Origin: a virus
Taxonomy: Duplodnaviria > Heunggongvirae > Uroviricota > Caudoviricetes
Virus record (IMG/VR): IMGVR_UViG_3300032167_002916
Reading direction: 5' to 3' (one strand)
Length of the DNA stretch: 64,000 bases
Under the pieces are notes generated by a model. The model ran no database searches. It saw nothing but the letters and a program-made list of their open reading frames with translations, and was not told where the DNA came from. This document shows, piece after piece, positions 7,564 to 60,854 of this stretch (the stretch's first letter is position 1; every line of letters starts with the position of its first letter). A program made the position numbers and the translations under genes.

Positions 7564-10500
7564 TTATTCTTGCCATGTCAGTGAAACGCCACCATCTTCG
7601 CGTGGGGAGAAGAAGAAGTTGCCTAGAATAAGGGTGTTCTCAATCACGGCATTGGGAATATGTAATTGATTGTTGTCCACATAAGAAACGATTATGTCTT
7701 CCTGTTTGAAATACAAGCCTGTATTATCAATAACAGTTTTGAATTTGCTGGAAGTAGCGCCGAGGGTTAATCCATCATCATTGAATGTCATATATTGACC
7801 GACCTCAGCTTTATGTGCAGCAAGCTGGTCATTGACATCGGATATTATTGCAGCATACTTTTTGTCAATTTCACTGGAAGCTGAGTTAATCTGATCTGTA
7901 ACCGAGGAGTTGATACCTGCGATTTTATCGTCAATCGTTGTGTTGATTTTTTCAGACTCAGACTGGATAGCATCATACAAATTGTTTGTGTTGTTTGTTA
8001 TAGACGCATTTAAGTCGTCAGTAGTTGTCTTGAACTGCTCTCTCAAAGCAGCGATATCATCAGCTACATCGTCAGTAAATACCGTCCATTCATAATCGTC
8101 AAAGACTTCCGAATCTTCTGTGTTAGTGTCGATATACGTACCAATGTATAGACCAATTTCAGCTCCGGTCTCGACGTTTGCATCTCTCATGTCTGGAATT
8201 ACTTCTTCGTTTTCAAAATAGGAAACGAAAGAATCGTATGTGTCCGTTCCGCCAGTTCCCTGAAGCATCACTCTAAAGTAATAGATACCATCCGGCACTT
8301 CGATTGTCAGATTGGAGGACAATTCAGAACTTCTGACATAGTTACCATCAACGTCATATTGTTTTATGTAAACCTTGATGCTATCATTGTTGGAAGTAGC
8401 CACATATTGAGTGCCAGGTACAACTGGGATAGCATCCACATAAGTAATGTAGTGCGTGTATCCGTCAACAACAACGCCTGTGTCAATCGTATCTCTTGAA
8501 GGGGCAACACCGCTAACCCATTTATCGATATTCGTCGATAATGCGTTTCCAGTAAATGTCAGGCAATCGTCAGAGTACTTGATGTGCAGATACTGCGGTC
8601 CGACACCGCCGCCAGACGCCAGATCTTCTAGGTTCGTAGAATCACCGGAACTGGTATAAATACTGATAGTACCGTTAAGTACGAGGTTGCCGTTGTCGTC
8701 AATATACAACTGCTTGGAGTAATACTCATTACCAGAATCATCTAACAGCTTCTTCTGAATTGTGAATACCATCCGGCTCGGGTCGTTGGACGTGTAATCG
8801 GAAGTCAGCGTAAAACCATTATTGTCCAGCGTAATACTGTTGTTCGTGTTATAGATACCAACTTCTTCAGACAAGACCATACTGCCAATAAGGGTATCGG
8901 CAATCACACCATAGCGCTCTTCGACCTCACCTGTGAATGGGTTGTTAAACAGGAAGCTGCCAATGGCAGTGCTTGCGGTCTCCCAGCCATCGTCAGTGAA
9001 AACAATGGTCTGGTTGGTGATCTTGATTTGCTTCGGGCCGTACTCTCCGTTTTCCAGTAAAGTGCGTCCCAGAATGCCAGTATCGTCGATGATGATCTCC
9101 TGATTTGCGGAAGCAAGTGCAGCATTTTTGGTCAGAATACCAGAAGACTCAATTGCTTCCTTCATCATGTCAAATTCGCCATCCTTGACAGGGTAGAGAA
9201 TCTCCTTGATGTAGTTGATGGAGTTCGTGGATTTCTTGATATCGCCAAGTACGCCATTAAAAATGGCCTTCGGGTCGAATCGGCTAAAGCGATTTCCGAA
9301 GGTCATCTGCAAAGACTTGTCCGCATAGTTAACGGTTATATTCGATAAGAAGAGCAAGGCCACATCGTCGACTTCAAGCTCCACGTTGATTAAACAGCCA
9401 GTCTCAAGCTGTTCGCTCCATTCTTCGAACTCCTTCGCAAACAGGAAGTTCTCAACATCCATTGAGAACTCTTGCGTAGGTTCGGAGACACGACTCAGTC
9501 TTGTAACAGCCCGGTCATATAGAGTCTTCATCTGCTGGAACTTTTCTGAGTAGGTCATTATACTGGTAACAGAAATGTACTCGTCAGTATAACTTCCCTC
9601 ATAAATGTAATTGCTTAATTCATTGTACTCAGCTTCTGTGAAGTAGGAGGTAATAGCAACACTTTCATGAATTGCCACAATTGAATCAAGTAGTCCAGAG
9701 ACTTCTGCAGCAGCATCGTCGAGGTCTGCTTTCGCCTGTGCCAGGTCATTCTTAGCATTTGCGATCAAAGTATCAATCTCTGCAAGAGTGTCTGCCAGTT
9801 CGTTCTGAACGCCAACAGGAACACCACCATTTTCTTCGATCACTTTGTTATAACTTGGCACAGTAGCTGTCGAACCATTGGCGACAATGTTATCCCGGCA
9901 ACGCTGGTACATTTCAATCTGAATGTTTATTCTGTCAATTTCAGAATTCAAATCAGACTGTGAGGTCAGATTCTCGTAATAAGCAAGATTGAGGTCATAA
10001 TACTCAGATTCTTTGGAAGCAACCAGCTCCTGCCATGCGACCACTTTCTCACGAAGGGAGTCTGTCATCCAGTCCAGATAGTAGTCAAAGTTGTAGATCA
10101 CATTTGTGCCGATTGGGTTGACAGGGGAGATGTTCAGATTTTCATCGCCCTGAACGTTAAGCGCAGTATACAAATCCTCAGACCCCTCGGAGATCGTGAG
10201 TGTGTTAATCACGTCAGCCTTGGTGATATGGATTTGTGTCTCTGCAAAATAGTTGTTCTGATCGTAGACATCGATCCTACGATTGATCGTGTCAAAGTGG
10301 AAGATACACTCATAAGCATCCTGCATGTTCTCTTGTAGAAATGCCAGGGCGTTCAGTTCGGTGCTTACGCCTTCAAAGGTTCTATACTTCTTTGCGACAT
10401 CGCCATTGACCTCACCAATAGTCCACATCGGCAAAACTGCGACAATCTTTTCTAGCAGATCTGTAAACAGGTACGTTCCGTCTTCAATGTAAGGAACAAG

Positions 10501-17289: not shown

Positions 17290-17683
17290 TCTATCTAATA
17301 ACTCTGACAACCACACAGACTGCGTTGATTGACATTTTCTCTGATTGGGATTATAATACTCATTGACCTGACGACCCAGACCGTCGTCGAGGCAAGACTT
17401 CAAAAAGGAGGCCAGTTATGTTAGGTAAACTTTTGAACTTGCCTGTCTCTGAGGTAACACCAATGCGAGGGCAAGGCGAATAATTTCGTGCCTGCGGAAC
17501 CCACCCGCTAAAGTGCGGTTGCCTTGAGTAAGAAAGGATAGACGCATCCCATCCGATGATAGTGCGGTAGCAAAGTGCGCACGTCCTGCTAAGGAATAAA
17601 AGGAGAAAGGGTCGACAGGGTAGCAACTGAAGACCGCCAAACACTATCGTTGCTGCAAGGTTCAGAGAAAACAAATATGGGCG

Positions 17684-17724
17684 AAGAACTGCTGAGAAGA
17701 TGCGCTCGGCAGTTCTTTTGTTTA
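17684..17724 (+). terminator. Intrinsic terminator (GAAGAACTGCTGAG / CTCGGCAGTTCTT stem plus T-run)
   Basis: 13-bp stem followed by TTTTGTTT. Confidence 0.55.
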
Positions 17725-34542: not shown

Positions 34543-35571
34543 TTACATATCTGCAAGTCCTTTCTTTTCAGGTACGGCGATGTCTCCATTCGCAAAATAC
34601 ATACCAATCTGTTCGTCGGTATCAATATCCGTATAGAGCCGCACCATATCACTGGACTCCCAGGCAACGATACTTTGGATAACACCGTCTGGTATACCTG
34701 CTCTCGCGAGACTTGTAGTAAAGTAATGTCGCAAACTGTGAGTATAGAAATCTTTTCCGGTCAATCTAGAAAAAGTCTTTGCCCAACTATTAACCGTAGG
34801 AATTCCGATATGCTCTTCTGGGTCTGAATTAGAGGGAAATAACCATTCACTCGTAATGCCTAGTTCTTCTCGCTGCTTACACCACAAATCAAAATACGGT
34901 CTAAACTTTTTAGCTAATGTGTAGCACGGTATATACTTTCCGCCGCCCCGACCCTTTGTCTTGATTGGAGAACTCTTATATAGAGCTCCATCGCAAACGA
35001 GCTTATCCTCAGAAAAATCAGAGACCTTAAATCTGCATAGCTCAGACTTACGGCGTCCACTATACATTGCGAGAGCAAGGAAGCACGCTTTTTCGTAATG
35101 CTTCATGTCCACTAATATGGCGAGTAAATCTTCAAGTTCTTCGTCTTCCCACACCGTTTTCTCGCGGACAACTTGTAGTGTGGGGTTCTCTATTTTTCTT
35201 ACGATAGAACGGAATCCTTTGAACTCAGGTTCTTCGTCTAAAATAGCTTCAACAAAATTACTTAGCGAGGAAATAGCAGACTTAAGTCTACGCACACGTG
35301 AAGAGCTATTTTGGTTCTCGTTTAGAAGCCAATTCTGATATGCAACCAAATCTCTTTTGGTAATTTCCACGAATGGCTTATTGCGAGCATTATGCAATAC
35401 CCACACAAAGAAGATATCAAGATCATTGCTATATCCAGAAATTGTTCCTGGACTTCTCTGGATCGATTTCAAATAATCCAGAAAATCGTTTTTTAACCTG
35501 ATATTTTCTGGGTTTATCTGTGCAACAAGCTCGGGGCTTGTAATCGAATTCATTTTTGTTTTTCGTGACAT
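34543..35571 (-). CDS. int: Tyrosine integrase
   Basis: Arg box GRRKSELCRFKVSDF, HSLRHYFTT (HxxR) and a C-terminal LY motif. Start trimmed to MSRKTK so that it does not overlap tRNA-Asn. Confidence 0.75.
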   Translation of the reverse strand: MSRKTKMNSITSPELVAQINPENIRLKNDFLDYLKSIQRSPGTISGYSNDLDIFFVWVLHNARNKPFVEITKRDLVAYQNWLLNENQNSSSRVRRLKSAISSLSNFVEAILDEEPEFKGFRSIVRKIENPTLQVVREKTVWEDEELEDLLAILVDMKHYEKACFLALAMYSGRRKSELCRFKVSDFSEDKLVCDGALYKSSPIKTKGRGGGKYIPCYTLAKKFRPYFDLWCKQREELGITSEWLFPSNSDPEEHIGIPTVNSWAKTFSRLTGKDFYTHSLRHYFTTSLARAGIPDGVIQSIVAWESSDMVRLYTDIDTDEQIGMYFANGDIAVPEKKGLADM

Positions 35572-35598
35572 ACAAGCCACCTCCTTCGTTATTTTTTT

Positions 35599-35675
35599 TG
35601 GCGATTCCTCCTGGGTTCGAACCAAGGACACATGGGTTAACAGCCCATTGCTCTTCCTGCTGAGCTAAGGAACCG
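35599..35675 (-). tRNA. tRNA-Asn(GTT)
   Basis: Hand-folded cloverleaf: T-loop GGTTCGAACC, anticodon loop CTGTTAA, encoded CCA. Confidence 0.85.
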
Positions 35676-35679
35676 TATC

Positions 35680-35760
35680 AGGAATAGGTAATACTTCTAA
35701 TCAGTTTGTTTGGACACTGCCCCTTCGGGAACTGTAAGTTCTCTAACCAAACCTATTCCT
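35680..35760. other. 81-nt element with a perfect 10-bp outer stem (AGGAATAGGT/ACCTATTCCT), an inner GTTTGG/CCAAAC stem and a CUUCGG tetraloop; located between two tRNAs
   Basis: Inverted repeats read directly from the sequence; no tRNA T-loop consensus. Confidence 0.4.
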
Positions 35761-35761
35761 T

Positions 35762-35838
35762 TGGCGACTCCGAACGGACTCGAACCGTCGACCTCCAGCG
35801 TGACAGGCTGGCGTTCTGCGCTACTGAACTACGGAGCC
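35762..35838 (-). tRNA. tRNA-Asp(GTC)
   Basis: Cloverleaf with anticodon loop CTGTCAC, T-loop GGTTCGAGTCC, encoded CCA. Confidence 0.85.
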
Positions 35839-35885
35839 AAATAATAAAGCCGGGGTGCCGTAGCACACCCGACTATGATCTGATA

Positions 35886-36080
35886 TTATTCTTCTTCACC
35901 TTCAGGCAATACCAATGCAGCGATCAAGTAGGCAAACCCGCCGACGCCAAAACACAGAATGCTGATAGCTAGAATCAGTCTGATGACAGTTGGATCGCAA
36001 TTTAGATACTCTGCAAGTCCACCACAAACACCGAAAATCTTCTTGTCCTTACAACTTTTAGTTAAACGTTTCTTTTCCAT
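35886..36080 (-). CDS. PspC-domain small membrane protein (64 aa)
   Basis: FGVCGGLAEYLNCDPTVIRLILAI signature followed by a transmembrane helix. Confidence 0.5.
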   Translation of the reverse strand: MEKKRLTKSCKDKKIFGVCGGLAEYLNCDPTVIRLILAISILCFGVGGFAYLIAALVLPEGEEE

Positions 36081-36103
36081 ATTGCGTCCTCCTTATGAAA
36101 ATT

Positions 36104-36183
36104 ATGGTAGCGAGATGTGGGAGTCGAACCCACTCCTCAGGGCTTATGAGGCCCGCGACTTAACCGCTTGTCCTATCCGCCAT
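36104..36183 (-). tRNA. tRNA-Met/Ile2-like (CAT anticodon) with imperfect acceptor pairing
   Basis: T-arm GTGGG-TTCGACT-CCCAC and anticodon loop CTCATAA are clear; the acceptor and D stems pair poorly by hand-folding. Confidence 0.5.
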
Positions 36184-36185
36184 AT

Positions 36186-36260
36186 TGGTGGGAAGGGTTG
36201 GTATCGATCCAACCTTTCTGGATTTTCAGTCCAGCACACATCCATCTATGTCACCTTCCC
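36186..36260 (-). tRNA. tRNA-Phe(GAA)
   Basis: Acceptor GGGAAGG/CCTTCCC, anticodon loop CTGAAAA, encoded CCA. Confidence 0.85.
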
Positions 36261-36265
36261 AAATG

Positions 36266-36341
36266 TGGTGATGCCGACAGGATTCGAACCTGCGCATATA
36301 AGGATGAAAACCTTATGTCTTAACCACTTGACGACGGCACC
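36266..36341 (-). tRNA. tRNA-Glu(TTC)
   Basis: Anticodon stem TAAGG/CCTTA with loop TTTTCAT; T-loop GGTTCGAATCC; encoded CCA. Confidence 0.8.
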
Positions 36342-36343
36342 GT

Positions 36344-36428
36344 TGGTGGGTCAGGTTGGACTCGAACCAACGTAGGTAAAACCGGTGGATTTACAGTCCA
36401 CTGCCATTGCCACTAGGCGACTGACCCA
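36344..36428 (-). tRNA. tRNA-Tyr(GTA), type II with a long variable arm
   Basis: Anticodon loop CTGTAAA; long variable arm; T-loop GGTTCGAGTCC; encoded CCA. Confidence 0.85.
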
Positions 36429-36491: not shown

Positions 36492-37721
36492 TTAAAATGT
36501 ATCACATTTCAGGCGATACTCAGCATCAACACCATACTTCGGATCAACAATAAGTAATAGCTGTTCGGGGTGAGAGTATAGACGTTTATCATTTGCGTAA
36601 TCATCAGCCCCACATAAAGAACCACATATTGTCGCAGTCACACCGAGTTCGTTGAAGCTTTCACGATGATGCTTGTCACCGAGTAAAATGTACTCAATGT
36701 TCTTCCCGTATTTCTTCTGGAAGACTGTAGTTAATAGTCTCGGAGAAGTCTTTACGGTATCAAGATCGCCATGGCTTGCACAAATATCATGTCCACAAGC
36801 ATCGATGAACAAGAACTCATTTTCGCTCTCAGGCATGACAGTAATGTTATCATACATCTGGAATCTCTGCTCAAGCCACCATGGAACGATTCTCTCCATA
36901 TTATCTCTATGTAAGCTGTCGTTCTTATTCTGGACAGTCCTGGAATGGTTGCCGTAAGTCACGTAGACCTTAGTCTCAGAAACATATTGTCCTAACTTAA
37001 GAATTGCTTGCGCCAGTATTTCGGAGACTTGCATCAGCTGATCGCATACTAATTCATCGGATGCTACTCTGGCACCAACGTGAATTGCCCCATGGCAAAC
37101 ATCACCAAGCACAACGACATGCAGCTTATTACATCTATGTAATCTTATTCTTTCGATCGCCGCATCTACAACCGTAGCGACTCTCTTTTTACAGATGTCG
37201 GTATTATACTCATTGAATACATTATTTGTCTTCATTCCATAATGCCAGTCGCTGAACACAAGTACCGCCTCGTTATCATTGGAGTATGCCAAATCGAAAT
37301 AATTGTCGCTGAACATAACCCCAACTGTCTCCACGAGATTGCCGGCTGCCTCTGCGAGCATATCATAAACATGCTCTCTTCGACCATCTGAGTATACCAA
37401 CTTATGATACTCTCTGCGCTGATCCCAAAACTTCTGCTGCTCTCTTTTTAGTACAGCGGTCTTTTCTTCTATCTCACGAATTACAGCATTGTCACTAATG
37501 CCTCGAATCTGCTCCTGGTCAAGTAACTCAAGTGTACGTCTACTGCCGTACATCATTCTTCTAGCAACATCGCTTGAATATGACTGACCGTATACAAGTT
37601 CGGCCAACTCGGAGTAGTCGCAATCTGCAAGAGTTTTGTCAGTGAGCTTGCCATGAATCAAACGCTTGTGATAGTCAAACGCTGATTCGTTCTCTGCTCT
37701 CTGCAGATCCATCTGACTCAT
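36492..37721 (-). CDS. Calcineurin-like metallophosphoesterase (409 aa)
   Basis: Motifs LGDVCHG (GDxHG), GNHS (GNH) and GHDICASHGD / GDKHH. Confidence 0.65.
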   Translation of the reverse strand: MSQMDLQRAENESAFDYHKRLIHGKLTDKTLADCDYSELAELVYGQSYSSDVARRMMYGSRRTLELLDQEQIRGISDNAVIREIEEKTAVLKREQQKFWDQRREYHKLVYSDGRREHVYDMLAEAAGNLVETVGVMFSDNYFDLAYSNDNEAVLVFSDWHYGMKTNNVFNEYNTDICKKRVATVVDAAIERIRLHRCNKLHVVVLGDVCHGAIHVGARVASDELVCDQLMQVSEILAQAILKLGQYVSETKVYVTYGNHSRTVQNKNDSLHRDNMERIVPWWLEQRFQMYDNITVMPESENEFLFIDACGHDICASHGDLDTVKTSPRLLTTVFQKKYGKNIEYILLGDKHHRESFNELGVTATICGSLCGADDYANDKRLYSHPEQLLLIVDPKYGVDAEYRLKCDTF

Positions 37722-37927
37722 TTTCTAACCTCAATGACGCCTGCATTTCGCATGGTGTTCAGCAGCTTCATTACTTTTGGGCTCTCAGTGCAGAAATAAT
37801 GCTTTCGCTTAGAGTCCTGCCGCATAGTGCGAACAATATGGGTATTGGGGTACTTAGCTAAAATAGCGTCCTTCTCGGATCTGGAAATTGCAATCATATG
37901 TATATCATCCTTTACTTCAAATTTCAA
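37718..37927 (-). CDS. Hypothetical small protein (69 aa)
   Basis: Start overlaps the downstream gene by 4 nt, indicating operon coupling. Confidence 0.35.
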   Translation of the reverse strand: MKFEVKDDIHMIAISRSEKDAILAKYPNTHIVRTMRQDSKRKHYFCTESPKVMKLLNTMRNAGVIEVRK

Positions 37928-38044
37928 AATTGCAAAAAGTGATTATCTCTTTCATAATAAGGGCTGGTGCACGCCCCCGGGGAGCCATTGCGGTGCAACG
38001 TCTCTTGGGGTGTCATTTTTGCACCATTTTTTTAATTTTATGCA

Positions 38045-38815
38045 TTATATTGCAGCCGAAATATCGCGATTCATAACTGAATTCACCTTATTCTTGACAC
38101 GTATTTCTGTTGCACAACAGTTGCAGTATTTTTGCTTTCTGCCAACGCCAGGGTTATTTCTCTTTGTAGTGATGCCACAATGAGAGCAAACAAAATAAGG
38201 TTCTCCGTATTGCTTCATATATTGATATCCAATATTGCGGAAGTCGATGATATTCATCACCGGTTCATCGGTATCAGCAAATAACACACGAACACTCAGG
38301 TTATCAATTTGTTTGGAAAACTGGATAAGGCCATTATCTCTCAACTGTCTGAAAAGCGCACACTGCCGATGCACAGAGGCACTTATATTAGCCATACGAA
38401 GAATTTCGTTATCCGGTGTGTTTACCCAGTAATTGGTATTTGGGTCAACTGCATAATTGTATTTTGCTATGCATAGCAGGGTGAAGGCAAGCCTCCGTGC
38501 CTGCTTACCTTCTATCTTTTCAATTCTGCGCAACTCATTTCCGGTAATGGAAATGCTGTCAATAATAACGAGCGGACGCTTAAACGCTACTTTAATAATA
38601 CCGTCCAACGGCTCTGACCATTTATGTATTGGAAATGACGGATCGCAGCTTAAAATAAATGCCTCCACATTATTCCTGACTTCTTTCTTTGAGAGTCCTT
38701 TATGAGCGTAATACTTTGAAACCATCATAATAGTTTCATATGGCTTCTTGCCAAGCATCTTTTCACGGATTGCATTCTCTGCCCACACGAGCTCATTCAA
38801 AACAATACTCATCAT
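38045..38815 (-). CDS. Hypothetical replication-module protein with a C-terminal Cys4 zinc finger (256 aa)
   Basis: CSHCG...CNCC motif; overlaps the stop of the 888-aa gene. Confidence 0.4.
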   Translation of the reverse strand: MMSIVLNELVWAENAIREKMLGKKPYETIMMVSKYYAHKGLSKKEVRNNVEAFILSCDPSFPIHKWSEPLDGIIKVAFKRPLVIIDSISITGNELRRIEKIEGKQARRLAFTLLCIAKYNYAVDPNTNYWVNTPDNEILRMANISASVHRQCALFRQLRDNGLIQFSKQIDNLSVRVLFADTDEPVMNIIDFRNIGYQYMKQYGEPYFVCSHCGITTKRNNPGVGRKQKYCNCCATEIRVKNKVNSVMNRDISAAI

Positions 38816-41459
38816 TATCCTCCATGTTAACTTTTATTTCTTTGAATCTCCTTCCCTGGTAGAGTATGTCTCCATCATCGGCACACACCGGAACAGAAAC
38901 TGTGCCCCCATTCTTTGATAGCAGATTATTTACGATGTCTGCACCACAAATGTCCCACGCAAACTTCTTCGACGCACTTCGTTTGTAACATAGATCCAGC
39001 ACGATATTACATAGGGTCGACCTGTTCTGGCAAACTGCTTCACACTCTCTAACAAATTCATCACGCATACAAGAGATCGTTGTTTTGGACTCAGCAACAT
39101 CCACTCGTTCATAGTATGTGTAAACAAGATAGCGTTGGAGTTTGTGGTTATATTCCTCATATAGCTTACGGATAGAGGACATCTGTGAATATGTATATTC
39201 TGCGTCAGATTTCATTATTGAATAATCAAAATCTGTGACCTTATTAAATTTACCGATGTAGCCATCGAACTCTTCTTCAAATCTCCAACAGATCTTATTC
39301 ATTACGCATGGATTGGTTCCGGCAGGAAGTCGGGATTTATAATAACGCAGGAAGTCGAGCTGGCGCTCAGTAAGTTCACAGTGTGGCATTGCATCAAGTT
39401 CATCAACGGTAAGGCCAAACTCTCTGATGGCGTTCCTATCTGTGTTCTTCTTATAAGTGCTATACTGTTTCATCAACGCCGGATATATATAACACATGAA
39501 ATACGGCTTGCGGTCAGCGACGATACTCCTGTAGTAACGCTTCATATCTGTATTCTCTATCAGATTGACGGAGTGCCGGTCGTGCCATTCTCTCGGCATG
39601 GGCTTTGCGATAATGCCTTTAGCCTTGTCGATTGCGTTCTGCTGGAATAGCTGACCACACTTAATACGATAGGCAAGATCCGAATATTCTTGGGAACTCT
39701 TAGGAAATTTAGATTGAACTTCGAACATAGAGGTAATCCAATTAGTAGTTTTTCCGATATCATTGCCGAAGCTCTCAATATTAGATTTGATGAAATCCTC
39801 TTCGCATACAACCTTTTTTGTAGCTCTACGCTGAGCGCACATTAGTGCAGGCAGTTCGACTAATTTGTCGACAAGAACTTCATTGTCGGTTAACATAACT
39901 AAATCTCCATCAAAGTCCATACCGTTCAGCGCAGAAGCTGCAGTGTCCCAACCGTTAAAGATTGTACATGTTGTCATATACTGAAACCAATACTTTGCCT
40001 CGTCAGAAGTACATGGATGAACCGCTCTTATATTCGCATGGCATGTCATAGGCGCTCTGAAACAGGCAAGCTTCTCAGCTCCGTAATCTCCCCAATACCT
40101 ATTGTAGATTTCACCGGCTTTAAGCAATCCAGTCTTCTCCTGTCCAAACACGCTTTGACATAGGAGGTAGGGATCGCCAGATACTATGGAATAATTGCCG
40201 TGGACTTTTAGTACGCCAACCTTTGCTTCGTTGATTCTGTTTCTAATCAACTGATATATGCTACTCCGCACATATGGATCGTCTACCATCTTTGGGTTAA
40301 CCAGTATAGCCTTGAGATAACTGTCTTCCAGTCGTTCAATATTATCTGCACGAAGACTATCGCCCTTTAGAAACAAAACTGTCTTATGCCAATCGCCGCC
40401 TAGTACCTCTTTAATCTCATTCATCGTGGGTGTAATTAGGCGTTCAATGTCGTCGTCGTCCAAATCATAGCTCTGGATGAACTGGTAGTTGAGGCAGCGT
40501 TCTCGTTCCAACTCCTTTGGGCACGTCTTTGCTACACTGAAGGTATAACCATTATCCATACAGCACTGGATGTAGTGGTCGCAACTTTCGTAGCTGTCCC
40601 AAAGCTTGACCATAGATGTGGTCAGCATCAGATCAACATCTCGGATGTCAACCTCATTTCCCCAGGCGTCTTTGATTATATAAGTTCCGGCGACTTTCTC
40701 GGCATAATCGTGGAAATCAAATGTGAAAACCATTCCTTTTTCAAAGGAAAAGCGAGTGTTCACACCACTTACCAAGTAGTCCAATCCAAGATCTTTACTC
40801 CATTGCTCAGCCAAAGAGGGGAGCATCAGCCCATATCCGTCAGATGCATTCATCCGGATCGGCACCTGTTTCCGTTCCTCCATTACAGGTTCACCATCAG
40901 CTTCATCTGTTAAGTAGACAATATCAGACAAGAACTCTGTTTCGCAATCATCAACAACGACAATGCCCTTCGGGAACGATACTGGAGTTGATGCGCTGCA
41001 TGTCAGAGCTTTGTATGCTTCAAGCTTTGCCGGAACCAATTTCTTTTCCAGGTCACGTCCATTATCAATTCGACGACGAAGTTCATCAGCGTGACGTTCA
41101 CTCACAAAAACAATCGTGCTATTCTTAATTCCGCCATTTGTACCGAGCAGCCGCTTATAGTTGATACCATTGATGCTGAATCCTTTACAGGCTCTGTAGT
41201 AATCTTTCTCTTTATCAATAATCAAACACATATAGTCTGGCTTAAATTGGATGCTGTCCAGCTGAGCATAGAGCTGCTTTACGGCACGTCTGTTCTGAAC
41301 GGTGTTTGCTTCTTTGCGAAGCCGTTTAATCTCCTGCTTAATTTCTTTTGCCTTACTCTCAGCGTCCGTAATGCCGTTCAATTCATCAAGCCATCTTAAG
41401 ACTTGGCTATCGGCGAGGGAAATCACTTCATCGTTTCGCCTGGCCTCGGCGATGCCCAA
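38793..41459 (-). CDS. 888-aa protein carrying a DFDGD motif; candidate YonO-like single-subunit (two-barrel) RNA polymerase
   Basis: NGMDFDGDLVML is near-identical to the Mg-binding loop NADFDGDQMAVH of the multisubunit RNA polymerase beta-prime subunit; size is similar to YonO-type enzymes. No search was run. Confidence 0.5.
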   Translation of the reverse strand: MGIAEARRNDEVISLADSQVLRWLDELNGITDAESKAKEIKQEIKRLRKEANTVQNRRAVKQLYAQLDSIQFKPDYMCLIIDKEKDYYRACKGFSINGINYKRLLGTNGGIKNSTIVFVSERHADELRRRIDNGRDLEKKLVPAKLEAYKALTCSASTPVSFPKGIVVVDDCETEFLSDIVYLTDEADGEPVMEERKQVPIRMNASDGYGLMLPSLAEQWSKDLGLDYLVSGVNTRFSFEKGMVFTFDFHDYAEKVAGTYIIKDAWGNEVDIRDVDLMLTTSMVKLWDSYESCDHYIQCCMDNGYTFSVAKTCPKELERERCLNYQFIQSYDLDDDDIERLITPTMNEIKEVLGGDWHKTVLFLKGDSLRADNIERLEDSYLKAILVNPKMVDDPYVRSSIYQLIRNRINEAKVGVLKVHGNYSIVSGDPYLLCQSVFGQEKTGLLKAGEIYNRYWGDYGAEKLACFRAPMTCHANIRAVHPCTSDEAKYWFQYMTTCTIFNGWDTAASALNGMDFDGDLVMLTDNEVLVDKLVELPALMCAQRRATKKVVCEEDFIKSNIESFGNDIGKTTNWITSMFEVQSKFPKSSQEYSDLAYRIKCGQLFQQNAIDKAKGIIAKPMPREWHDRHSVNLIENTDMKRYYRSIVADRKPYFMCYIYPALMKQYSTYKKNTDRNAIREFGLTVDELDAMPHCELTERQLDFLRYYKSRLPAGTNPCVMNKICWRFEEEFDGYIGKFNKVTDFDYSIMKSDAEYTYSQMSSIRKLYEEYNHKLQRYLVYTYYERVDVAESKTTISCMRDEFVRECEAVCQNRSTLCNIVLDLCYKRSASKKFAWDICGADIVNNLLSKNGGTVSVPVCADDGDILYQGRRFKEIKVNMEDNDEYCFE

Positions 41460-41595
41460 TGTCAGTTTCCACTTGTTCTCCCTCAGTCTTCTGCTGTGTA
41501 GTTTGTATATGTATTTCTGGCAGGTCTGTTGCTTAGCTATATCGTTCCATCTCCTTGCAAATTATTTAATCAACATGACGTGGTTTAATTTTTAG

Positions 41596-41775
41596 TTCCA
41601 CTGAGTAATGTAGCTCCACCACTCATCGTAGAACGCATCTCTTCCTTCTTCAATGTATGTATCAATATACTCGTCTTCTGCGGAGTCGTCCGCAGGGGAG
41701 TAATGTGGGCAGCCATATGCAGGGTCACAAATATCTCGGAACAGGCAAGCTCCGCACTTAAGTTTATTCATCTAT
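41596..41775 (-). CDS. Small Cys-rich protein (59 aa, below the ORF-track cutoff)
   Basis: Manual translation gives MNKLKCGACLFRDICDPAYGCPHY...; overlaps the P-loop gene stop. Confidence 0.35.
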
Positions 41776-42981
41776 GTTATCTCCTTTGCTCATATCTTCA
41801 ATCCAATTTTGTAATAATTCACGCATCCGGCGACTTGGTATGTATACCCTGATCGGCTTATCGTCGCGGATGGCACTTCTCCAGATCCACTGCAGCATCT
41901 CTGCCAAAGCGAAGTGATCTGCGTTAATTGTAATACCTCTACTCGAAAAAAACTTCATCAGATTAGGATCGACAAACCGATTAACCATGTATGCGATATC
42001 AGTCTTGCTTCTATATTCGTTGGTCGCTCTGGCGCTAACCTGTAGGAAGTTATTACGGAAACGTCCAGTGCGGACATCGACCAGCTTGCTCTGATCATCC
42101 TTAAAAGAAGTCCAGAGTCGAGTGTCGGCCTTGCTGTCTGGTGCCGTTCTAAAGAACTGTCTTAATCCGTTTCTCAAAGCACGAATATCATCATTGTCAT
42201 ATCCACGTTTCATAAACCAGTTCTTAGATAGTGCATATCTGCTGTGTCCTGGCTTGTTCAATTTTGGATCATCAACGATCTGAATTAGATTGTGGTAGTC
42301 CAGTGGGGGAGGGGCGTCCGGTTTATCTGAGAAGTAGAATCCATGTTCATCCCGAAGAACACCGATAATGCGGTATTCGAACCCGAAAAATTCAAGGTAA
42401 GCTTTCTGATACTGACCATCAAATAGATAGGTCAACATGAACACTTCATCGAAAGCTCGCAACATCTCTGGGTTCATTATGCTTAGTAATGCACTATCCA
42501 AACGAAATAGTGTGCCGGTGTCTGCCATCTCTTTGTAGTCGGCAAATCTGCCTACATACTCTTTATCTATCCAACGCAGATATCCACCTTCGTCTTCCTC
42601 GACCAGGCGGCCAACAATTAAATCAAAGTCCTTGCTGGAAATATTAAGTCGTTCGATGACCTGGATGCTTTCGTCGACGATAAGGGAATAGTTCATCTCT
42701 TTAACAAGTTCAAGCGCTTCTTCATCCATAAGATGGAATAGAGAATGGGTGGCAGCAATGTTCTTGCCCTTTCTCATGTGGAGCTTTAACTCCAGAGATT
42801 TGCTCATATAGTCACTCTCAGATTGGTCGAAGTCGCATTGCTCGCAAATTCGGTCGACCTCGTTCAAATATGGAGTGATGTACAAGAATCGCTTGGTACC
42901 TTTGTGTTCATTCATATATCGTATTGCGGCGGAAGACTTACCTCTGCCCATCCGGGCATCCACCACTGTAATTTCATTCAA
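41764..42981 (-). CDS. P-loop NTPase (405 aa), probably replication- or packaging-associated
   Basis: N-terminal Walker A motif ARMGRGKSSAAI. Confidence 0.55.
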   Translation of the reverse strand: MNEITVVDARMGRGKSSAAIRYMNEHKGTKRFLYITPYLNEVDRICEQCDFDQSESDYMSKSLELKLHMRKGKNIAATHSLFHLMDEEALELVKEMNYSLIVDESIQVIERLNISSKDFDLIVGRLVEEDEGGYLRWIDKEYVGRFADYKEMADTGTLFRLDSALLSIMNPEMLRAFDEVFMLTYLFDGQYQKAYLEFFGFEYRIIGVLRDEHGFYFSDKPDAPPPLDYHNLIQIVDDPKLNKPGHSRYALSKNWFMKRGYDNDDIRALRNGLRQFFRTAPDSKADTRLWTSFKDDQSKLVDVRTGRFRNNFLQVSARATNEYRSKTDIAYMVNRFVDPNLMKFFSSRGITINADHFALAEMLQWIWRSAIRDDKPIRVYIPSRRMRELLQNWIEDMSKGDNIDE

Positions 42982-43209: not shown

Positions 43210-44034
43210 TTATCCGGCAGAAATATCCATCTCAATGACATTACCATCAATCAAATAATTGCAAGTAGTACTACCCAGATTAAGACTCCGATAAGCTTCT
43301 TCAATCTCTTCGCCGGTAATACCAATATAATCCAAAGTCTGAGCTGCACTGGAATGACCCATCATCTTTTGCAGCAGAAGAAGCTTTCGTGGGTCGTTAT
43401 GGCTCATAAGCATCTGATGGTAAGCGAAGGTCTTTCTCAGAGTATGAGTAGACATATGAATGTTCATATCCATGTCGGCAGCAATACCCTTCAGGATCAT
43501 ATCAATTGCTTTACGAGAAATAGGAGTGTTATTTGCCTTGCTATTGTTGGATGCACTTCTAAACATGTAGTCGCTCAGAGATACATTAGGAGTATTCTCC
43601 AAATAGAGAATAACAGCATCTTGGACCGCAGTATTGATTGTGATGTAGCGATTACGCTTATGCTTACGGGTGTTACGAGTCTTCTGCTCGAAAATAGGGA
43701 AGCTGTCTCTGAACATCTGGACACCGTTATTGCTAACAATCAGATTGGAGAACCGGAGCATCCGGAGATCGCTAACTCTGAGTCCAAAGTTAATGCCTAC
43801 GATAAAGAGCATGTTGTCTCTGAACCTCTTATTCGCAATAAGGTATTTAGAAACTCTAATGATATCGTCCATGCTCTTAATTGGTTCAGAGGTATGTTCC
43901 GGTGCAAGAACGCTTGACGTATCCTCAGTAGCAGGAGCAATCAAGCCGGCCTGCAGCCTACGTGTATTCTGTTGGATGGATGCTACGTTGATAGCGTTAT
44001 TTCTCTTCTCAAGATCAAGAACGATAATACTCAT
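43210..44034 (-). CDS. Second, small tyrosine recombinase (XerD-like, about 274 aa)
   Basis: GLRVSDLRML, HTLRKTFAYH and MMGHSS...LDYIG motifs. Confidence 0.7.
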   Translation of the reverse strand: MSIIVLDLEKRNNAINVASIQQNTRRLQAGLIAPATEDTSSVLAPEHTSEPIKSMDDIIRVSKYLIANKRFRDNMLFIVGINFGLRVSDLRMLRFSNLIVSNNGVQMFRDSFPIFEQKTRNTRKHKRNRYITINTAVQDAVILYLENTPNVSLSDYMFRSASNNSKANNTPISRKAIDMILKGIAADMDMNIHMSTHTLRKTFAYHQMLMSHNDPRKLLLLQKMMGHSSAAQTLDYIGITGEEIEEAYRSLNLGSTTCNYLIDGNVIEMDISAG

Positions 44035-44472
44035 ATACAAACTTCCTTTCGTGCAAACTATTTAATTAGCATTACATGAGCTTAAAATACAGGATCTTTC
44101 GATCCGGCTGTAAATTATTTAATTAACTTATATTCTCTTATATTATATCATACGAAAGGGCTTATGTCAAGCGATTTTGACCCGTTTTGAAAAATAAATT
44201 TATAAATATTTTTGAAAGAAATTGTTAGGCATTATTAAGCTAATTTCGGAAATACCAGGATATTCAATAGTTCAAAGTTTTGGAAAAGGATCTGCTTAGT
44301 GGTGACGATTTGAGGGGCAAAAAGTTAGGAAAATGGTGACAGTTAGATGAACCGACTGATACCATTTACGATTCACATAGGGGGTCAAAAAACCATAACT
44401 ATCCCCCTGTTGTACTTCCTCTTGTGTGAAATTGTGAAGTAGAAAAAAGTTGACCGAAATGAAAAAATCAGC

Positions 44473-44501
44473 TTGACAAATGGAATAGCCTATGATATAA
44501 T
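44473..44501 (+). promoter_or_regulatory. Consensus sigma70 promoter TTGACA-17-TATAAT
   Basis: Exact hexamers at 44473-44478 and 44496-44501. Confidence 0.6.
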
Positions 44502-58206: not shown

Positions 58207-58283
58207 GTGCCAGTAGCTCAGTGGAAAGCAGCAACTGCCTTCTAAGCAGTAGGTCACAGGTTCGAGTCCTGTCTGGCATACCA
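58207..58283 (+). tRNA. tRNA-Arg(TCT)
   Basis: Acceptor GTGCCAG/CTGGCAT, anticodon stem ACTGC/GCAGT with loop CTTCTAA, T-arm ACAGG-TTCGAGT-CCTGT, encoded CCA. Confidence 0.75.
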
Positions 58284-60775: not shown

Positions 60776-60854
60776 GGGAGGATGGCGGAATGGTAGACGC
60801 TAAGGGACGCCGAGGATAACTTCCGTGTAGGTTCAAATCCTACTTCTCCCACCA
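60776..60854 (+). other. tRNA-like element with a Leu/Ser-type D-arm, canonical T-arm and A-CCA end but no foldable anticodon arm
   Basis: Acceptor GGGAGGA/TTCTCCC; D-arm TGGCGGAATGGTAGACGC; T-arm GTAGG-TTCAAAT-CCTAC. No placement of a 5-bp stem with a 7-nt loop pairs in the intervening 25 nt. Confidence 0.45.

Follow-up and report, generated by a model that had tools for sequence, protein, structure and literature searches.

A YonO-type two-barrel RNA polymerase gene and its coupled partner gene at the head of a presumed phage late operon

A 64,000-nt stretch of the IMG/VR virus record IMGVR_UViG_3300032167_002916 (Caudoviricetes), referred to here in its whole length as the window, carries on its minus strand a gene for an RNA polymerase (RNAP) related to YonO of phage SPbeta. 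YonO is a strictly DNA-dependent RNAP made of a single peptide and is required for expression of the SPbeta late genes (PMC5467207). We consider it probable that the window gene encodes a single-polypeptide RNAP of the YonO lineage, built on two double-psi beta-barrel (DPBB) domains, and that the enzyme serves as a DNA-dependent late transcriptase. The gene is followed by an overlapping partner gene for a winged-helix/zinc-ribbon protein and by a conserved element that may be the promoter of the late operon.

Identification of a two-barrel RNA polymerase

The called open reading frame (ORF; 38793..41459, minus strand) runs for 888 aa from a TTG codon and contains ASALNGMDFDGDLVMLTDNE. A sequence-only reading of the window had singled out this ORF for its DFDGD loop as a candidate YonO-like single-subunit two-barrel RNAP. 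The invariance of the aspartate triad D515/D517/D519 among homologs, a Pfam match and the predicted fold exclude a chance match. The protein matched PF05183 ("RdRP", the cellular two-barrel family) with 48 bits against a gathering score of 23.8 (E 1e-12), residues 90-576 aligning to profile positions 62-502 of 582. Pairwise BLASTP against SPbeta YonO gave E 1e-28 with 25% identity (130/511 identities) over the two-barrel core, and both the R-x-P motif (CFRAPM in the window, ILRSPH in YonO) and the catalytic motif (MDFDGD and FDNDGD) fell in register. Together with the second barrel and the fold described below, this match bears out the YonO-like assignment. PHROGs returned only families of unknown function, a sequence search of the PDB gave no match, and NCBIfam held no family for the RNAP, the partner, or the neighbouring YonV-like and YonJ-like proteins.

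Residue conservation was counted in an alignment of 80 homologs at 27-55% identity. Eight residues are invariant in all two-barrel RNAPs (Qde1 D709, R738, K743, R962, P964, D1007, D1009 and D1011; PMC2919709), and all eight were present, invariant or nearly so (Table 1), as matched by spacing and conservation and not by residue-level structural superposition. The spacing of D207, R236 and K241 (D-29-R-5-K) is identical to that of Qde1 D709/R738/K743, while R468 lies 47 residues from the triad compared to 45 in Qde1. The second barrel with its conserved Lys and Arg, which the sequence-only reading had proposed to look for, is therefore present. G208 was also among the invariant columns, as was a further motif after the triad, QQxxIDKxKG (I610, D611, K614). 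In YonO the Asp triad is needed for catalysis (PMC5467207). The triad loop was conserved as DxDxD only, usually DxDGD. The sequence-only reading had matched the loop, including its flanking Asn and the following Met, to the beta-prime subunit; the aspartates stood up to the alignment but the flanks did not (N512 in 32/80, F516 in 38/80 and M522 in 13/80), and N512 lies one position farther from the triad than the Asn of NADFDGD. Membership in the multisubunit beta-prime family, marked by the NADFDGD signature together with bridge helix, trigger loop and clamp, was rejected, as this combination was not found.

An AlphaFold2 model built from the homolog alignment reached a pLDDT of 92.6 and a pTM of 0.89, and its predicted fold is that of a two-barrel RNAP, with two DPBB domains forming the active-site cleft. 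Foldseek against the PDB placed RDR2 (E 5e-18) and QDE-1 (~1e-16) on top with near-full-length alignments, followed by the Thermus-phage RNAPs P32 gp64 (6e-6) and P74 gp62 (~1e-5), while beta-prime subunits appeared only at E of at least 0.05. In another structure search the cores of Rpa1, Rpb1 and beta-prime stood lower, at about 8, and isolated DPBB domains at about 7. The top matches were all two-barrel RNAPs and not an unrelated fold, and there was no solved YonO structure among the matches. The enzyme appears to be a single chain of ~915 aa: no beta, alpha or omega homologs were found among the neighbours examined, and the coupled 256-aa partner could be a second subunit or a factor.

Position and sequence of the gene start

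The called TTG start is probably too far downstream, and the likely gene is longer (Table 1). The in-frame stretch upstream of the TTG (…DIAKQQTCQKYIYKLHSRRLRENKWKLT) agrees with the N-terminus conserved among homologs (e.g. MINIAKQQVLQRYILK… and MNLAKQLVCQKYIFK…), and no in-frame ATG, GTG or TTG lies within this homolog-matching stretch. A strong Shine-Dalgarno (SD) sequence, AAGGAGAT, stands 7-10 nt ahead of an in-frame ATA at 41540, the spacing depending on which SD end is taken (window 41538-41565, minus strand). The same arrangement was seen in six aligned relatives, which have AAGGAGAT or GAGGTGA with an in-frame ATA 6-10 nt later (ATT in one locus); with the window these make seven aligned start regions spanning several lineages. 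The out-of-frame ATG/GTG just after AGGAG raised a programmed frameshift or a sequencing indel as explanations. Both were rejected and an ATA/ATT start preferred, since the seeming ATG/GTG belongs to the conserved SD, out of frame in several lineages, and an in-frame ATA/ATT follows 6-10 nt downstream in 7/7. More distant homologs with ordinary ATG starts are 905-927 aa long, comparable to ~915 aa. ATA is a rare and weak start codon, which may hold polymerase levels low or make them regulated.

A coupled partner gene in all related loci

The neighbours of the window RNAP were searched by tblastn against 80 related IMG/VR loci. Only the 256-aa partner was universal, lying directly downstream of the RNAP gene in 80/80 loci, even in a clade at 48% RNAP identity, where the search no longer detected YonV, YonJ or the recombinases. 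The partner overlapped the RNAP stop in nearly every locus, by 4 nt or by 10-107 nt. It was also found beside the RNAP in independent bacterial-genome loci and in the c-st and Enterocloster phages. In Bacillus phage BUCT082 the 278-aa ORF after the RNAP is a full-length partner homolog (hhalign 99.5%, E 6e-23), and the 209-aa ORF after the RNAP of Thomasclavelia phage TR-TP1 gave a weak match covering the central domain only. The YonV-like P-loop protein was also considered as an obligate partner and rejected, as it was found in 34/80 loci and differs from the gene upstream of the BUCT082 RNAP. The literature searched describes neither the coupled partner nor the conserved element treated below.

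The partner structure was predicted from database homolog proteins and combines a winged-helix fold with an invariant Cys4. Its architecture recalls TFE/TFIIE-alpha, which join an extended winged helix to a zinc ribbon, but this is an analogy only: there is no sequence similarity and homology is not claimed, the ORC/Cdc6/Rep winged helices score equal or better, and the partner has an extra N-terminal helical domain. That the partner is a factor for promoter recognition or initiation is a hypothesis to which we give slightly less than even weight. Its closest folds were ORC2/Cdc6/Rep-type winged helices and PriX, which also suits a replication-initiation module in which the partner would bind an origin (the hairpin or the conserved block) and the two-barrel enzyme would make primer RNA. 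A conserved structured DNA element does adjoin the genes, no canonical primase or replication gene was identified within the 64-kb window, and the sequence-only reading had placed the gene in a replication module. We regard this explanation as unlikely.

Some partner homologs are ~375-383 aa long instead of ~255 (P0291, P0279, P0288, P0370 and P0378; L020 7149-8276). P0291 carries a GIY-YIG domain (PF01541), which suggests that a homing endonuclease has been fused to the partner gene at its 3' end.

A conserved element ahead of the late genes

The sequence-only reading had proposed a search for a shared non-sigma70 motif before the late genes, and one conserved candidate block was found; its function as a promoter is a suggestion of ours. 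About 70-110 nt past the partner stop, the otherwise diverged spacers of non-redundant loci share a hairpin followed by a two-block motif, tTGATG-N6-7-TAtAATG(A/G)A(A/G)GG-aATATa. The hairpin had z < -2 against shuffles in 25/32 non-redundant loci (median z -4.4). Its stem sequences vary by locus and a T-run often follows, so that it looks like a terminator of early transcription. A position weight matrix (PWM), trained without the window sequence but with its 92%-identical relative L003, ranked the block above every other site on both strands of the 64-kb window, with a score of 16.8 where shuffles reached at most 13.9, and gave no second convincing site there. A single significant site fits a single late promoter. 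We infer that the block may be the phage-RNAP promoter, at odds a little short of even.

The block could also be a host sigma-A extended -10 promoter behind an early terminator, with host RNAP transcribing the late genes and the phage polymerase playing a minor part. Many relatives do read TGnTATAAT at the block (e.g. L008, L015), and a terminator-like hairpin lies ahead of it. However, conservation peaks at ATGnAnGG, downstream of the hexamer, and not at the T-A---T of a sigma70 -10 element. The TG is missing in many loci, among them the window (CCTTATTAT), a -35 element at a distance of 16-18 nt is lacking, and a divergent clade retains TTATGGTAGGG without a -10-like hexamer. The block is not a sigma70-type match, and we see only a slim chance that it is a host promoter from which host RNAP transcribes the late genes.

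Gene order and distribution of host-type promoters

The minus-strand order in the window is a tyrosine-recombinase-like gene (43210-44040), a YonV-like P-loop NTPase, a 59-aa Cys-rich ORF, the RNAP and the partner, followed by a small ORF, a YonJ homolog, tRNAs, a second tyrosine recombinase, terminase, portal, head, tape measure and tail genes. In SPbeta the order is yonV…yonO-yonN-yonK-yonJ and then the structural genes. The window RNAP gene therefore occupies the yonO slot: a YonV-like gene precedes it, a YonJ-like exonuclease gene comes after it, and it heads the late structural operon, with which it shares the strand. BUCT082 and TR-TP1 show the same order. The small gene after the candidate promoter (orf69) holds the position of SPbeta yonK and has an N-terminus of similar type in the divergent clade; it showed no sequence similarity to YonK. 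The YonJ-like protein matched the phrog_284 exonuclease family and Pfam Metallophos. Of the gene context given in the sequence-only reading, the neighbouring P-loop NTPase and a tyrosine-recombinase-like gene are there, whereas the "replication and recombination module" is not borne out, with no identifiable replication gene among the neighbours.

A perfect sigma70-type promoter points into the RNAP and partner operon (Table 1), and three more 11-12/12 sites lie on the plus strand at 44473, 44618 and 44897; all four have an extended -10 TG. The sigma70 promoters that had been noted at 44.4-45.0 kb are thus real consensus matches (11-12/12 at 44.1-44.9 kb). Over the 35 kb of the late region, the coding strand gave no site of at least 11/12, and total counts equalled the shuffle expectation. 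The lack of strong coding-strand sigma70 sites in the late region fits a separate late programme. From sequence, such a layout would be expected if host RNAP transcribed the polymerase gene early and the late operon depended on the phage polymerase.

Several other features of the region were recorded. The segment 44041-45759 is a 1.7-kb divergent early region with ORFs of at most 78 aa and the strongest AT skew in the window (+0.22, 44-46 kb). Its plus-strand promoters have no obvious gene immediately downstream, and a noncoding RNA or a regulatory region is possible. The 59-aa Cys-rich ORF (MNKLKCGACLFRDICDPAYGCPHY…; 41592-41771, minus strand) between the YonV-like and RNAP genes overlaps the end of the YonV-like gene, was detectable in 16/80 related loci and had no family match. 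The window codes for two members of the tyrosine-recombinase family, both on the minus strand: one of 276 aa opens the early leftward operon, and one of 362 aa (34543-35631) lies inside the late block just before the terminase region, where it is kept in 37/80 related loci. A tRNA cluster (35599-36427, minus strand; Asn, Asp, Phe, Glu and Tyr) sits between the YonJ-like and recombinase genes, with five tRNAs by ARAGORN and six by Rfam. A tRNA-Arg(tct) lies on the other arm (58207-58283, plus strand), and weaker Rfam tRNA matches without an ARAGORN call were seen at 36109-36180 (minus) and 60776-60851 (plus). A FuFi-1 sRNA match (RF02986; 17474-17718, plus strand) scored 59.6 bits, exactly the gathering score. 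Both a perfect sigma70-type promoter (17329-17357) and a terminator (17683-17718) belong to this candidate, which lies near the tape-measure region on the strand opposite to the late structural genes.

Table 1. Positions of the polymerase gene, its conserved residues and associated features. Positions are those of the window unless a locus handle is given.
Feature	Position	Strand	Remarks
YonO-type single-chain two-barrel RNAP gene	38793..41540	minus	Called 38793..41459; probable start ATA 41540..41538, ~915 aa
Beta-like barrel residues D207 to K241 (D207, G208, R236, K241)	40737..40841	minus	D207 80/80, R236 78/80, K241 80/80
R-x-P motif R468-A-P470, beta-prime-like barrel, Qde1 R962/P964 equivalent	40050..40058	minus	R468 and P470 80/80
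Catalytic Asp triad D515-F-D517-G-D519, beta-prime-like barrel	39903..39917	minus	80/80 invariant; aligned with YonO DNDGD
Partner gene, 256 aa: helical N-domain, winged-helix domain, Cys4 zinc ribbon	38045..38815	minus	Overlaps RNAP stop by 23 nt
Candidate late (phage-RNAP) promoter region	37940..38013	minus	Hairpin 38013..37971, then block with core TATTATGAAAGAGA at 37959..37946
First small gene after candidate promoter, ~59 aa	37718..37897	minus	ATG at 37897; homologs in 31 loci
YonJ-like metallophosphoesterase/exonuclease, second gene of presumed late operon	36492..37721	minus	SPbeta YonJ BLASTP E 3e-21, full length
YonV-like P-loop NTPase, upstream neighbour	41764..42981	minus	tblastn to SPbeta yonV 36% identity, E 9e-82; phrog_2467
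Perfect sigma70-type promoter, TTGACA-17-TATAAT with TG, 12/12	44142..44170	minus	Points into RNAP and partner operon
SPbeta core copies, upstream of yonK	L001 8880-8893 and 9037-9050	late strand	Copy 9037-9050 is TCATTTATGAGGGT
BUCT082 core copies	L097 7492-7505 and 7649-7662	late strand	In spacer upstream of yonK

Replacement of yonO by a window-type gene in BUCT082

Bacillus phage BUCT082, a Spbetavirus, carries at the yonO position a window-type RNAP of 924 aa, which shares 31% identity with the window protein and 25% with YonO. Its RNAP is followed by the 278-aa ORF, an HU protein, YonK and a YonJ-type esterase. The BUCT082 HU-YonK spacer is 95% identical to that of SPbeta, which holds the mapped P_YonO region. 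Two very different family members thus stand at one locus ahead of one late-promoter region in sister phages, which suggests that the window-type enzyme does the job of YonO. This replacement, read from sequence comparison, is the strongest indirect evidence available for a YonO-like role of the window-type enzyme.

A search of both loci for the core TCATTTATGA(A/G)GGT, allowing up to 2 mismatches, returned exactly two copies each in SPbeta and BUCT082 (Table 1), in the long non-coding late spacer on the late strand and 157 nt apart, and no other matches in either locus. The second SPbeta copy falls within the 245-bp fragment (8908-9152) bounded by the published P_YonO primer-extension primers. 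The link between these cores and the window promoter candidate is suggestive only.

Distribution of the family

Searched by tblastn against annotated phages, the window RNAP found full-length relatives at ~40% identity in Clostridium phage c-st and six Enterocloster phages, and further relatives at 31% in BUCT082 and at 23% in Thomasclavelia phages. YonO of SPbeta and all its relatives were found at 25% over residues 92-579, with E ~1e-22 against 24 Bacillus SPbeta-like phages. A 90%-identity cluster search gave more than 4,400 of 8,000 scored candidates with E <1e-5; there were 1,818 representatives of 50%-identity clusters, 559 of them with E <1e-30. Related loci came from Clostridia metagenome-assembled genomes (MAGs) and genomes (Eubacteriales, Tyzzerella, Acutalibacteraceae, Ruminococcus, Anaerocolumna xylanovorans and Hominimerdicola aceti). 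A few host labels, an Alistipes MAG and an "archaeon" MAG, were implausible and are probably artefacts of binning. As related viral sequences are mostly ~100-140 kb, the window would be roughly half of an SPbeta-sized phage genome.

The RNAP gene homologs were often interrupted, at two conserved sites. At the DxDGD triad (~515-522) 13 representatives end and 3 begin, and at IDKxKG (~607-615) 10 end. Group I introns (RF00028, 85-88 bits) interrupt the RNAP gene in L041 (5499-5827), at about RNAP residue 605, and in L093 (3667-3998). L002 2236-2988 is also listed among the interrupted homologs. The ORF intervening in Enterocloster phage CB457P2 resembles a homing endonuclease, with weak AP2 and HNH matches.

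A model of late transcription and the evidence against it

In the model we propose, host RNAP would transcribe the polymerase gene early from the sigma70 promoter 44170-44142, together with the YonV-like and partner genes. The polymerase would be translated from its weak ATA codon and the partner by translational coupling to it. The polymerase, acting on DNA, would then transcribe the same-strand late operon as one long unit, comprising the small ORF, the YonJ-like exonuclease, tRNAs, terminase, portal, head, tape measure and tail genes. Initiation would occur ~90 nt past the partner gene, at the conserved element with core TATTATGAAAGAG (37959-37946), with the winged-helix/zinc-ribbon partner as promoter-recognition or initiation factor, and the preceding hairpin, terminator-like in most relatives, would insulate the late genes from early read-through. 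Catalysis would depend on the D515/D517/D519 triad plus D207, R236, K241 and R468.

Several observations weigh against this model. The window clade is known from sequence and predicted structure alone. By profile, the window protein is closer to cellular RNA-dependent RNA polymerases (RdRPs) than YonO is, and its best structure matches are RdRPs. QDE-1 has both RdRP and DNA-dependent RNAP activity (PMC9508822), so that template specificity cannot be read from sequence or fold. YonO has no detectable partner in SPbeta, so the family as a whole does not require one. The window hairpin is weak (z -1.9) and lacks a T-run, so host read-through into the late genes is possible. The full 40-nt PWM of the window clade scored the SPbeta sites no higher than shuffles, and the resemblance to SPbeta therefore rests on a 10-14-nt core. 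The published P_YonO primer had no match in the genome contigs, and its start site, 2225998 of NC_000964, was not placed exactly.

It is very unlikely that the enzyme is an RdRP copying phage or host transcripts into double-stranded or antisense RNA for regulation or counter-defence: the window protein passes the Pfam "RdRP" threshold, structurally matches RDR2 and QDE-1 best and has relatives so annotated in GenBank (Enterocloster phage PMBT24 and Thomasclavelia phage TR-TP1), but the family name mirrors the eukaryotic members only, QDE-1 too transcribes DNA, YonO, the sole characterised phage relative, strongly prefers DNA templates (PMC5467207), a window-type gene stands in for yonO at the same locus in a Spbetavirus, and a place at the head of a late operon without sigma70 promoters calls for a DNA-dependent transcriptase. 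By analogy with YonO, the template of the window enzyme is expected to be DNA.

YonO-like proteins have been known in firmicute phages since 2003-2017, and identification of the window gene as a polymerase was to be expected. Cultured relatives are already in GenBank, labelled "hypothetical" or "RdRP", and the identification corrects those annotations. The YonO-type family is very large in phages of gut Clostridia. Its enzymes are the smallest known relatives of the cellular multisubunit RNAPs and are thought to resemble their single-chain ancestor. SPbeta YonO is the only member studied, and that work settled neither its promoter nor any cofactors it may have (PMC5467207). We tentatively propose that in the window clade the YonO-type enzyme is the catalytic half of a minimal two-protein system, with the partner as a sigma-, TFB- or TFE-like factor and the block as its promoter. 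If true, this system would answer a question from 2017, how an ancient YonO-type polymerase finds its promoters. The obligately linked, predicted DNA-binding partner and the single conserved candidate promoter at the early/late boundary are handles that make promoter recognition by YonO-type enzymes directly testable, and cultured phages with the polymerase-partner module are at hand (BUCT082, PMBT24, the CB457P/CB473P series and c-st).

Comparison with known polymerases

The window enzyme is most like YonO, with which it shares the core motifs, the genomic slot and the size class (839 aa for YonO, ~915 aa here). In SPbeta, YonO transcribes the late cluster as a single operon beginning upstream of yonK (PMC5467207), and the candidate element of the window lies ahead of the gene in the yonK position. 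The two proteins differ in that BLAST aligns them over residues 92-579 only, the C-terminal ~300 residues having no detectable similarity. PF05183 is reached by the proteins of the window, TR-TP1 and the divergent clade but not by YonO or the BUCT082 RNAP. The window clade always has the coupled partner gene, whereas SPbeta does not.

QDE-1 (2J7N, 7Y7P) and RDR2 (7W82, 7W84) are 13-16% identical to the window protein. In contrast to these enzymes, the window protein is encoded by a phage, at the head of a late operon and with no RNA interference context, and no dimerisation or head domains can be asserted for it. The non-virion and virion RNAPs of Thermus phages (P74 gp62, 8F5M; P32 gp64, 8F72; P23-45 gp96, 8H2M) and gp66 of the crAss-like phage phi14:2 (6VR4) are 9-13% identical with no sequence-level match. 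The sequence-only reading had also drawn a comparison with crAss-like phage RNAPs, which did not hold in size, context or level of similarity; membership in that type (>2000 aa, virion-packaged and encoded among the structural genes) was rejected. P23-45 gp96 is fused to the tape-measure protein and phi14:2 gp66 is a virion-packaged protein of 2166 residues, whereas the polymerase of the window is encoded by a free-standing early gene.

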